64,000 nt of DNA. It comes from an uncultured Gammaproteobacteria bacterium. GTDB lineage: Bacteria > Patescibacteriota > Patescibacteriia > UBA9934 > CAZDDW01. Every line of letters starts with the position of its first letter. The first letter of the stretch is position 1. Below are positions 10,901 through 11,352 of this stretch, in pieces. The position numbers and the translations under genes were made by a program. Below the pieces are notes generated by a model. It was not told where the DNA came from. It made no database searches and worked only from the letters and a program-made list of their open reading frames with translations. The stretch is taken from positions 396,488 through 460,487 of the forward strand of contig OZ246408.1 in the NCBI GenBank assembly GCA_965231015.1, read 5' to 3'.

Positions 10901-11174
10901 CCAAGAAGCTTTGGCTGAAGTTGCAGTTAAAGAAGCGGTTGAAACCAAAGAGGTTGGCGATCAGGTTGAAGAGAAAGATGATGGGGAACAAGGAAAGCTG
11001 TTTGAAGCAAAAGAAAATAATGAAGAAAAGGCAGAAGTGGGAAACCATGAATTAGCCGCCACGTTTGAAAATAGTTCTGACGCACCGGTTTGTGATACTT
11101 GCGGGTCGGTTATGGTGCGCAACGGTGCTTGCTATAAGTGTCTCAATTGCGGAGCCAGTTCTGGCTGTAGCTAA
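7986..11174 (+). CDS. nrdJ: adenosylcobalamin-dependent (class II) ribonucleotide reductase
   Basis: N-terminal ATP-cone; [21 protein letters not shown] active-site region; C-terminal CxxC...CxxC zinc ribbon; 1062 aa. Confidence 0.8.
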   Translation: [1062 protein letters not shown]

Positions 11175-11352
11175 CAGGGGGGGCTCGGAAATATAATATT
11201 GGCACCGTTCGGATCGGACGGTGCTTAATTTTATTGAAGGTGTCAGACCTCACTCATACGTCGACCAAACAAGACTGAATTGGTTAACCAACGTTCGATC
11301 TGGCGGTTTGGCCTCCGAACGTGCTGTGATATATTTCCTCGCTATAAGGGGG
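11174..11352 (+). ncRNA. conserved structured leader element, copy B
   Basis: Shares CACCGTTCGG, CTCACTC, CCAAACAAGACYGAATTG, GTTCGAT and CCTCCGANCGTGC blocks with copy A. Closing helix AAATATA (11189-11195) with TATATTT (11330-11336). Confidence 0.5.

Follow-up and report, generated by a model that had tools for sequence, protein, structure and literature searches.

A structured non-coding RNA family without an Rfam model at two operon junctions of a Candidatus Uhrbacteria-like bacterium

Several classes of small structured element are known from the spaces between bacterial genes. Intercistronic RNase III hairpins, such as the early-mRNA sites of phage T7 and those of the rpsO-pnp type, uncouple the fate of the upstream mRNA from that of the downstream mRNA. 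Integron attC sites are imperfect hairpins located right after the stop codon of one gene and ahead of the next gene. Some of their spacer bases are unpaired, their distal part varies and can be branched, and they function in a strand-specific manner. Repetitive extragenic palindromes (REPs) are about 35 nt long, occur in hundreds of copies per genome and have a conserved flanking tetranucleotide. When REPs are situated between the genes of an operon, they are known to stabilise the upstream mRNA (PMC3184786). ERIC and Correia elements measure about 100–170 nt, contain no open reading frame (ORF), form a long imperfect hairpin and occupy transcribed intergenic or intercistronic sites, where one relative may have them and another not. 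Effects on the processing and stability of mRNA are possible, and promoters or ribosome-binding sites are found within some of the repeat families (PMC3184786). Here, we describe a folded non-coding RNA of about 170 bases that lies between nrdJ, the gene of a B12-dependent ribonucleotide reductase, and cobO, the gene of an ATP:corrinoid adenosyltransferase, in a stretch of 64,000 nucleotides of contig OZ246408.1. This whole stretch is called the window in the following. A second copy stands in the same window upstream of a glycosidase gene, and the members of the family measure about 165–220 nt.

Among named sequences, those most similar to CobO and to the glycosidase come from Uhrbacteria; the host is a Candidatus Uhrbacteria-like member of the candidate phyla radiation (CPR). 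Little is known about gene control at the RNA level in the CPR (Patescibacteria), whose genomes are tiny and whose genes are tightly packed and often overlap. At this locus, we find an RNA family that is supported by covariation, that contains a three-fold internal-loop motif pointing to a protein partner, and that was demonstrably gained at an operon junction in one lineage. The finding also matters for annotation, as the nrdJ–cobO pair, normally directly adjacent, is split in the window genome.

Copies of the element and the nrdJ–cobO junction

When the nrdJ–cobO gap region was searched against the window with BLASTN, exactly one other copy was found, at 5071–5147 (79% identity over 78 nt, E=2e-13). 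A covariance model (R1) places the two copies at 5004–5169 and 11179–11346, both on the plus strand. Copy B, between nrdJ and cobO, extends from 11177 to 11346 (+) if the G-run of the closing helix, which starts at 11177, is added to the model match; it scores 146 bits, being itself one of the training sequences of the model. Copy A (5004–5169, +) is the home copy, flanked by the gene of a 524-aa membrane protein (3430–5004) on one side and a glycoside-hydrolase-like gene (ATG at 5182) on the other, and it is orthologous to copies on contigs of relatives, denoted here by L numbers (L001, L010, L024 and L026). An initial annotation of the sequence had described copy B as one copy of a conserved element; it is non-coding and structured, homologous to copy A and on the same strand as cobO. 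Beyond the two junctions, the covariance model detected no element, either in the 64 kb of the window or in the related contigs, which amount to about 165 kb without redundancy.

To compare the nrdJ–cobO junction between genomes, we used contigs of relatives that were retrieved with homologues of CobO and of the glycosidase as exact-protein queries. The closest relative (L001–L003) has a CobO that is 86% identical and the same gene order over 20 kb, and its nrdJ TAA is followed by the cobO ATG 4 nt on. In L010 and L012–14, nrdJ and cobO abut or overlap. In L004, L005 and L026, the junction is taken up by unrelated genes on the minus strand, one or two in each and 231–250 aa long (L004 1791–2501, L005 2057–2752, L026 17927–19389), again with no element. 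The junction genes of L004 and L005 were scanned and have no significant Pfam match, and those of L026 have no precomputed Pfam match. With genes in three relatives and the RNA element in the window, this junction looks like a recurrent insertion site.

The covariance model detected no element at the nrdJ–cobO junction in any relative contig recovered; that is, the element is not upstream of cobO in L001–3, L004, L005, L010, L012–14 and L026. The adjacency of nrdJ and cobO is a conserved pairing among the relatives. Because the site lacks the element in every relative recovered, we conclude that the tight junction is ancestral and that the block of about 199 nt is specific to the window lineage. 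Judged from this comparison, copy B is a recent lineage-specific insertion and not a conserved leader of cobO. The view of copy B as the leader of cobO thus holds in the physical sense, since it does form the 5′ leader of this gene, whereas it does not hold for a regulatory leader shared with the glycosidase, as the site is empty in relatives. A regulatory logic common to glycosidase and cobO, which the initial annotation had suggested, finds no support: the element is not at cobO in any relative, it matches no riboswitch family and the nucleotides of its junction are not conserved in the way that a ligand pocket would need.

The gap between the two genes measures 199 nt (11175–11373) and is occupied by copy B and its 3′ tail. 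Upstream, nrdJ (7986–11174, +; TAA stop at 11172–11174) encodes a class II reductase of 1062 aa according to the ORF list and Pfam (PF02867, PF08471, PF03477 and PF12637, with ATP-cone and TSCPD domains among them). Downstream, cobO (11374–11952, +) encodes 192 aa, and its true start is the ATG at 11374, as judged from Pfam (PF02572) and homologue lengths. The protein begins with MNSNQQ, has the P-loop GDGKGKTT from residue 26 and matches positions 3–172 of the PF02572 profile with residues 19–192. The ORF list instead holds an ORF of 243 aa that starts with a GTG at 11221. The corresponding N-terminal extension is present in 1 of the 120 best CobO homologues, which is the window's own annotated protein; the remaining best homologues are about 175–217 aa long or, where a NUDIX domain follows at the C-terminus, about 330 aa. 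Furthermore, a phmmer search with the 59-aa translation of 11197–11373 against 1.84 billion representative proteins gave no real homologue, the single match being a repeat-protein artefact. Because the extension is found only in the window's own protein and the translated stretch has no homologue, we conclude that the 243-aa ORF is a merge artefact and that the 243-aa 'CobO' of the public record is mis-started. A coding N-terminal extension of CobO is ruled out, as it is not kept in homologues. On these points the initial annotation was right: it had copy B filling the intergenic space, the ORF track merging the element into a 243-aa ORF, and CobO starting just 3′ of the element with its P-loop about 25 aa in. 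It had also named what would speak against a non-coding element, namely translation of 11221–11373 as an extension conserved in homologues, and neither the list of CobO homologues nor the phmmer search revealed one.

Two observations concern cobO itself. In Uhrbacteria, many CobO homologues carry a NUDIX domain fused to their C-terminus (PF02572+PF00293, about 330 aa), and the window CobO is the short form of 192 aa. In addition, a terminator-like hairpin with a T run is found at 12028–12044, between cobO and a convergent MgtE/CBS-domain gene (11952–12938, −).

Fold, loop module and family membership

We predicted the fold with RNAalifold on four copies and then with model-based alignments of six and seven copies. 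The seven copies support a predicted Y-shaped fold, in which a long stem (arm 1) closes the element and bears two hairpin arms. In the seven-copy alignment, which is fitted to the model, 89.4% of the cells are in standard pairs compared to 72% in column shuffles. Changes on both sides were observed in 28 of the 46 pairs, a number reached by none of 500 shuffles, and when the 3′ partners are slid by 1–3 columns, pairing falls to 28–53%. Independent MAFFT alignments of orthologue pairs also contain clean compensatory changes in the closing stem (P1), from GGUUUGA/UCAAACC to GAUUUGA/UCAAAUC and from CUUAUUG/CAAUAAG to CUUUUUG/CAAAAAG. The pairing cells include 26 G·U compared to 6 A·C. This excess implies that the constraint acts on one strand in single-stranded form, that is, on RNA or conceivably on single-stranded DNA.

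The most conserved feature is a module that occurs three times, at the foot of every arm: NN-UC-GG(CC)...(GG)CC-UC-N'N'. It is a tandem U·C/C·U mismatch forming an internal loop that is flanked by G-C pairs, and its closing pairs covary. The strands of the junction vary in sequence and length; the conserved nucleotides are the three UC/UC loops with their G-C flanks. We searched for single modules elsewhere in the window, on both strands (NN-TCGG-NN...NN-CCTC-NN with complementary flanks), and found 11 sites, 2 of them inside the elements, compared to 5.6 in shuffled sequence; the module is thus not dispersed in the manner of REPs.

In copy B, the 5′ strand of arm 1 lies at 11182–11195 (+) and comprises GGC (11182–84), the loop UC (11185–86) and the variable stem P1, GGAAAUAUA (11187–95). 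It pairs with the 3′ strand at 11330–11343 (+), which comprises UAUAUUUCC (11330–38), the loop UC (11339–40) and the closing GCU (11341–43). This arm was derived from a hand-built pair list that was checked for standard pairs. The inner part of arm 1, UGGCAC at 11200–11205 (+), pairs with GUGCUG at 11321–11326. Arm 2, obtained with RNAalifold, spans 11207–11253 (+), with the 5′ half GU-UC-GGAUCGG (11207–17), an AU-rich loop (11218–42) and the 3′ half UGUCAGACC-UC-AC (11243–53). Its closing pair covaries, being U-A in four copies and C-G in three, and copy B has two mismatches in this arm. Arm 3 spans 11259–11317 (+), starts with CG-UC-GACCAAAC (11259–70), ends with GUUUGGCC-UC-CG (11306–17) and is the block that is best conserved with copy A. 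It contains the hairpin P4, formed by AGACUGAAUUGG (11272–83), the loop UUAA (11284–87) and the return strand at 11288–11301. Across the copies, double changes affect 13 of the 20 pairs of helices 1 and 2 and 8 of the 10 pairs of helix 4. An inner helix drawn by hand (CACCGUUCGG with CCGAnCGUG) was rejected; it is favoured by single-sequence energy and holds less well in the L024 copies. We adopted the alignment-based fold with three arms and noted the alternative pairing, which is weighed below. The region is also covered by an independent assembly of the same strain (L028, Logan SRR7048225), which is 100% identical to window 504–11268 and whose contig stops within arm 3 of copy B, at the conserved CGACCAA, which may reflect either a break caused by the repeat or heterogeneity of the population at the insertion.

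Copy B differs from the other copies in several respects. Its family-type fold has an energy of −25 to −29 kcal/mol compared to a minimum free energy (MFE) of −53.9 kcal/mol, and its stability z-score is −0.5, which is no better than shuffled sequence, compared to −2.6 for copy A. A terminator scan combined with an energy calculation identified a hairpin that is specific to copy B at 11201–11235 (+), GGCACCGUUCGGAUCGGACGGUGCU with 11 bp and −17.1 kcal/mol, followed by UAAUUUUAUU. Its stem (11201–11225) has 7 G-C pairs among the 11 bp and is followed by TAATTTTATT, so that copy B alone has the GC-rich hairpin and U tract of an intrinsic terminator. This hairpin competes with arm 2 and with the inner part of arm 1, and the equivalent region of copy A reaches only −4.3 kcal/mol. 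A purine-rich motif, UAAGAAAGAA, which is found in the arm-2 loop of most copies, is missing from copy B. Copy B fits the family fold poorly and is probably a partly degenerate insertion.

The element is followed by a purine-rich 3′ tail that resembles a Shine-Dalgarno sequence (AAGGGGGGUGGAG, 11346–11358, +). The tail is homologous to AAGGAGGGUAGAG of the L001 copy A (11 of 13 positions identical), and the two window-clade sequences have the consensus AAGGRGGGURGAG in common. It is the only Shine-Dalgarno-like sequence ahead of cobO and may function as a ribosome-binding site. A consensus scan also gave a weakly suggestive promoter-like match at 11308–11335 (+; TTGGCC-16-TATATT with an upstream TG), which would start transcripts near the 3′ end of the element; promoter-like sites are no commoner in this region than in shuffled sequence.

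The element matches no known RNA family. A scan of the whole window at the gathering thresholds of Rfam 15 returned a tRNA gene (44801–44872, −; 62 bits) as its sole match, and no riboswitch of a known class. A permissive scan of 11050–11500 (E<=10) gave two chance matches to unrelated families. Copy A and the L010 and L024 copies had no credible match at the same threshold; the few matches were far below gathering, with a different family for each copy. A cobalamin riboswitch (RF00174 or adenosylcobalamin variants) was rejected because no model matched at E<=10 and a B12 box is missing. The known self-cleaving ribozymes (hammerhead, twister, twister-sister, pistol, hatchet and hepatitis-delta-virus-like) were rejected as well, with no Rfam match for any copy at E<=10. 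Resemblances to attC, T-box, signal recognition particle and 5S-like RNAs were assessed by eye and dismissed, as the core motifs are missing and no Rfam match exists. We conclude that the element represents a real and well-supported structured RNA family without an Rfam model.

To estimate how widely the family occurs, we searched several further collections. A blastn search with copy B ('distant' mode) against phage and plasmid collections returned no match. A pattern scan of genome contigs (CCAAACAAGACNGAAN{10,26}GTTCGAT) gave 3 matches, all due to chance, with a pattern that represents the window clade only and is too strict for diverged copies. A scan of metagenomes (CCTCNCTCN{2,3}CNTCGNCCN{35,62}CCTCNGANNGTG) gave 5 matches, all GC-rich chance matches, and two pattern scans of viral contigs gave 49 loci, none of which matched the covariance model. 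As far as seen, the family appears restricted to a subclade of Candidatus Uhrbacteria. It may be wider than this, as the scan patterns come from too few copies.

The home site and the origin of copy B

At the home site (site A), the element stands between a membrane-protein gene of about 522 aa and the glycosidase gene. Besides the window copy (5004–5169), copies are found there in L001 (3832–3998), L010 (9793–9966) and L026/L027 (9768–9942), and L024 has one at 4080–4299 (+) with a second copy at 4359–4575 (−) that adjoins it. Site A is filled in five of the nine lineages (window, L001, L010, L024 and L026/27) and is without the element in four, namely L009, L020/21, L012–14 (junctions of 2–25 nt) and L022 (a 99-nt AT-rich spacer). 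Lineages with and without the element are intermingled in a tree built from the two flanking proteins by neighbour joining, which implies several losses or several gains. Presence and absence are thus polymorphic at orthologous sites, and the nrdJ–cobO site (site B) is filled only in the window. We compared filled with empty sites to look for a target-site duplication, which turned out to be undefinable: the direct repeats TAAcAGGGGGG/TAtAAGGGGGG at copy B and ATAGAG at copy A overlap the element, in the closing G-run and the shared tail.

The copies show a strand bias, with six of the seven being co-oriented with the flanking genes. In all plus-strand copies, the element or its outer helix starts 0–9 nt past the upstream stop codon. 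The outer helix (P0, 8–10 bp) encloses the whole element in the more distant copies, at L010 9783–9790/9972–9979, L024 4070–4079/4318–4327 and L026 9759–9768 and about 9946–9955; in the L010 copy, CGGCCACU pairs with AGUGGCCG. The copies of the window clade have no P0 and start directly at the upstream stop. Because the ends of the minus-strand copy of L024 resemble those of the L010 copy and not those of its plus-strand neighbour, and because the orthologue of this neighbour stands alone in L026, the minus-strand copy is a separate insertion event. Short palindromes (UUCUUAC-G-GUAAGAA and CCGGCAGCUGCCGG) lie between the two L024 copies, and L025 1–136 (−) carries a copy in the opposite orientation, like L024 4359–4575. 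As a further observation on this locus, a 634-aa gene with a weak match to RHS repeats follows the glycosidase in L024 (5587–7491) and L026 (10983–12887) and is not in the otherwise syntenic operon of the window.

Comparing the window with L001, copy A is identical at 151 of 177 positions (85%), with 35/37 in the closing stem P1 and 21/24 in the arm-2 loop. The fourfold-degenerate sites of the flanking genes are 31–53% identical in the same comparison and are thus near saturation. Because copy A is conserved to this degree while the fourfold sites are near saturation, the orthologous copy is under purifying selection and not a decaying relic. In the pair L024/L026, the outer helices are similarly conserved and the interior has diverged, with large indels.

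The core of copy B is 77% identical to copy A of the window and 79% identical to copy A of L001, and it shares states with each of them at the few sites where the two A copies differ. In the P1 stems, A and B share 5/17 and 7/20 positions (about 30%), compared to 16/17 and 19/20 between orthologous copies; the termini of A and B have no more in common than the closing helix of 3 bp and the UC loop. Because copy B is no closer to the copy A of the window than to that of L001 and its closing stem is unrelated to that of A, copy B would come from an unseen donor, elsewhere in the genome or in another organism, and not from the resident copy A after the split of the window and L001. A role of the variable P1 stem as a locus-specific 'guide' was rejected, as no complementary or identical sites with <=3 mismatches exist in the window.

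Interpretation and comparison with known systems

We favour, with a probability of roughly 45%, the reading that the element is a co-transcribed intercistronic structured RNA that is probably recognised by a protein and is occasionally duplicated, copy B being a secondarily inserted paralogue. We read it as co-transcribed and intercistronic because it starts 0–9 nt past the upstream stop codon, because no promoter or terminator is conserved, and because of the selection at one junction and the tail. Recognition by a protein rather than by a metabolite is suggested because the conserved loops are triplicated and embedded in helices. Under this reading, the element would be transcribed within the operon mRNA and would fold into a Y shape whose closing stem varies between loci, and the triplicated loop module would be the feature recognised by a protein, which may be a regulator that binds RNA or an RNase specific for double strands. 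With the element in place, the downstream gene would lose the stop/start translational coupling that is seen in element-free relatives, and its expression could be set via processing, stability or control of initiation; in the window clade, the purine-rich tail would give the downstream cistron its own ribosome-binding site. The insertion between nrdJ and cobO turned a tightly coupled pair into two cistrons 199 nt apart. Thereby cobO, normally expressed in lock-step with the enzyme that needs its product, is separated from it by a structured spacer with a terminator-like hairpin. Copy B itself would probably act mainly as an insulator or attenuator that comes with a new ribosome-binding site for cobO, and not as a fully functional member of the family.

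Several points weigh against this reading. The fold was derived from seven copies in five host lineages, and its pairing statistics are inflated because the counts come from an alignment that had been fitted to the model. Single-sequence MFE folds favour a pairing of GUUCGG with CCGAUC over arm 2, which can be explained by the likeness of the three modules, as the 5′ and 3′ halves of different modules can pair. The L010 and L024 copies show no obvious tail of the Shine-Dalgarno type, and neither a conserved helix that sequesters the Shine-Dalgarno sequence nor a conserved terminator was found across the copies. The L024 copy at 4359–4575 is antisense to the operon and does not agree with a purely cis-acting mRNA element. 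Furthermore, copies were counted in 64 kb of a genome of roughly 1 Mb, and the donor of copy B was not found in this part. The analysis shows the homology, the insertion, the covarying structure, the strand bias, the selection on copy A and the lack of an Rfam match; co-transcription, processing and any protein partner, together with the effect on expression, are all things that we infer.

The explanation that survives best besides this one is a non-autonomous mobile element without a host function, either like a MITE, which is a miniature inverted-repeat transposable element, or a single-stranded DNA hairpin of the IS200/IS605-REP type, where the three identical hairpin bases would be recognised by a transposase encoded elsewhere and copy B would simply be a new insertion. 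We consider this unlikely. It would account for the presence/absence polymorphism at two operon junctions, for the extra inverted copy in L024 with ends like those of the L010 copy rather than of its neighbour, and for the unseen donor of copy B, which is no closer to the copy A of the window than to that of L001. In addition, both empty sites read TAA-A(AA)T-ATG, and strand-specific hairpins with conserved mismatches recall the substrates of HUH transposases. However, the terminal stems are not conserved (about 30% identity of P1 between A and B), a target-site duplication is not definable, and the element is not dispersed, as sites A and B are the only ones in the window and the related contigs; single modules are not enriched elsewhere in the window either. 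No transposase was seen among the minority of window ORFs that were scanned against Pfam. Lastly, copy A is conserved far above neutral sites, unlike a decaying selfish relic.

Still less probable in our view is a stand-alone small non-coding RNA, with its own transcript or cut from the operon, which would act in trans or as a scaffold of a ribonucleoprotein and of which copy B would be a duplicated gene. The compact fold that is closed by its own 5′ and 3′ ends and strongly covaries would suit such an RNA, as would the antisense copy of L024, which suggests independence of orientation, the conservation of copy A over its whole length including the loops (arm-2 loop 21/24) and the conserved UAAGAAAGAA in the arm-2 loop of most copies. 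However, a start 0–9 nt past the upstream stop leaves no room for its own promoter, and no conserved promoter or terminator was found. In five lineages the element keeps its place between one and the same pair of genes, whereas a trans-acting gene would have no reason to stay there, and copy B is without the loop motif.

A metabolite riboswitch or another cis-acting leader through which glycosidase and cobO would answer to a common signal such as a corrinoid, in the sense of the shared regulatory logic of the initial annotation, is very improbable: both window copies do stand directly upstream of a co-oriented gene, and the RNA is structured, covaries and offers switchable pairings (GUUCGG with CCUCAC or CCGAUC, and the terminator-like alternative hairpin of copy B), but the element is not upstream of cobO in any relative examined, about half of the lineages lack it upstream of the glycosidase as well (five with it, four without), it matches no cobalamin or other riboswitch model at E<=10, and its conserved nucleotides form three loops embedded in helices rather than a pocket at the junction, with no conserved expression platform. 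We thus read the element as neither a B12 riboswitch nor one that senses another metabolite.

The favoured reading of a co-transcribed, protein-recognised intercistronic RNA can be extended to a hitherto undescribed class of 'portable' RNA cassettes in Patescibacteria. Such a cassette would have three arms with the triplicated loop module and a ribosome-binding tail, would be kept by selection at one operon junction and would be copied into other tight stop/start junctions, such as nrdJ–cobO, converting coupled genes into separately controlled cistrons. This extension is speculative and we regard it as rather unlikely. If the downstream cistron is modulated, the family would be a regulatory RNA that spreads as a cassette in reduced genomes; if the element is selfish, CPR genomes would contain small mobile elements of a new type.

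When comparing the element to known systems, we find partial likeness to each of them. It resembles the cobalamin riboswitch (RF00174) as a structured RNA upstream of a corrinoid-related gene; in contrast, its home site is at the glycosidase gene, and it is not at cobO in relatives. It differs from attC sites in having no RYYYAAC/GTTRRRY core sites at its ends, no integrase was seen, and the distribution of conservation is reversed, with a conserved centre and a variable stem; its flanking genes are syntenic core genes and not cassettes. With intercistronic RNase III sites it shares a long irregular stem with small internal loops (P0/P1) between two cistrons. However, in RNase III sites, which are simple hairpins, no branched core is conserved, and they are not families that duplicate to new loci. 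The repeated imperfect palindromes with conserved mismatches, their strand specificity and their location between operon genes recall the hairpin substrates of REP-associated transposases (REP/BIME, RAYT) and of HUH (Y1) transposases. Unlike REPs, the three hairpin bases are nested in one unit of 170 nt, the modules are not dispersed and no RAYT or Y1 gene was seen. The element falls outside the definition of a MITE with respect to conserved terminal repeats and copy number. Finally, it is similar to ERIC and Correia elements in its size, its lack of an ORF, its intercistronic site and its variable presence. It differs from them in that the terminal stems are not conserved, that no TA or other target duplication is seen and that two sites only were found; its conserved part is instead an internal branched core with a triplicated module, whose orthologous copy is under purifying selection.

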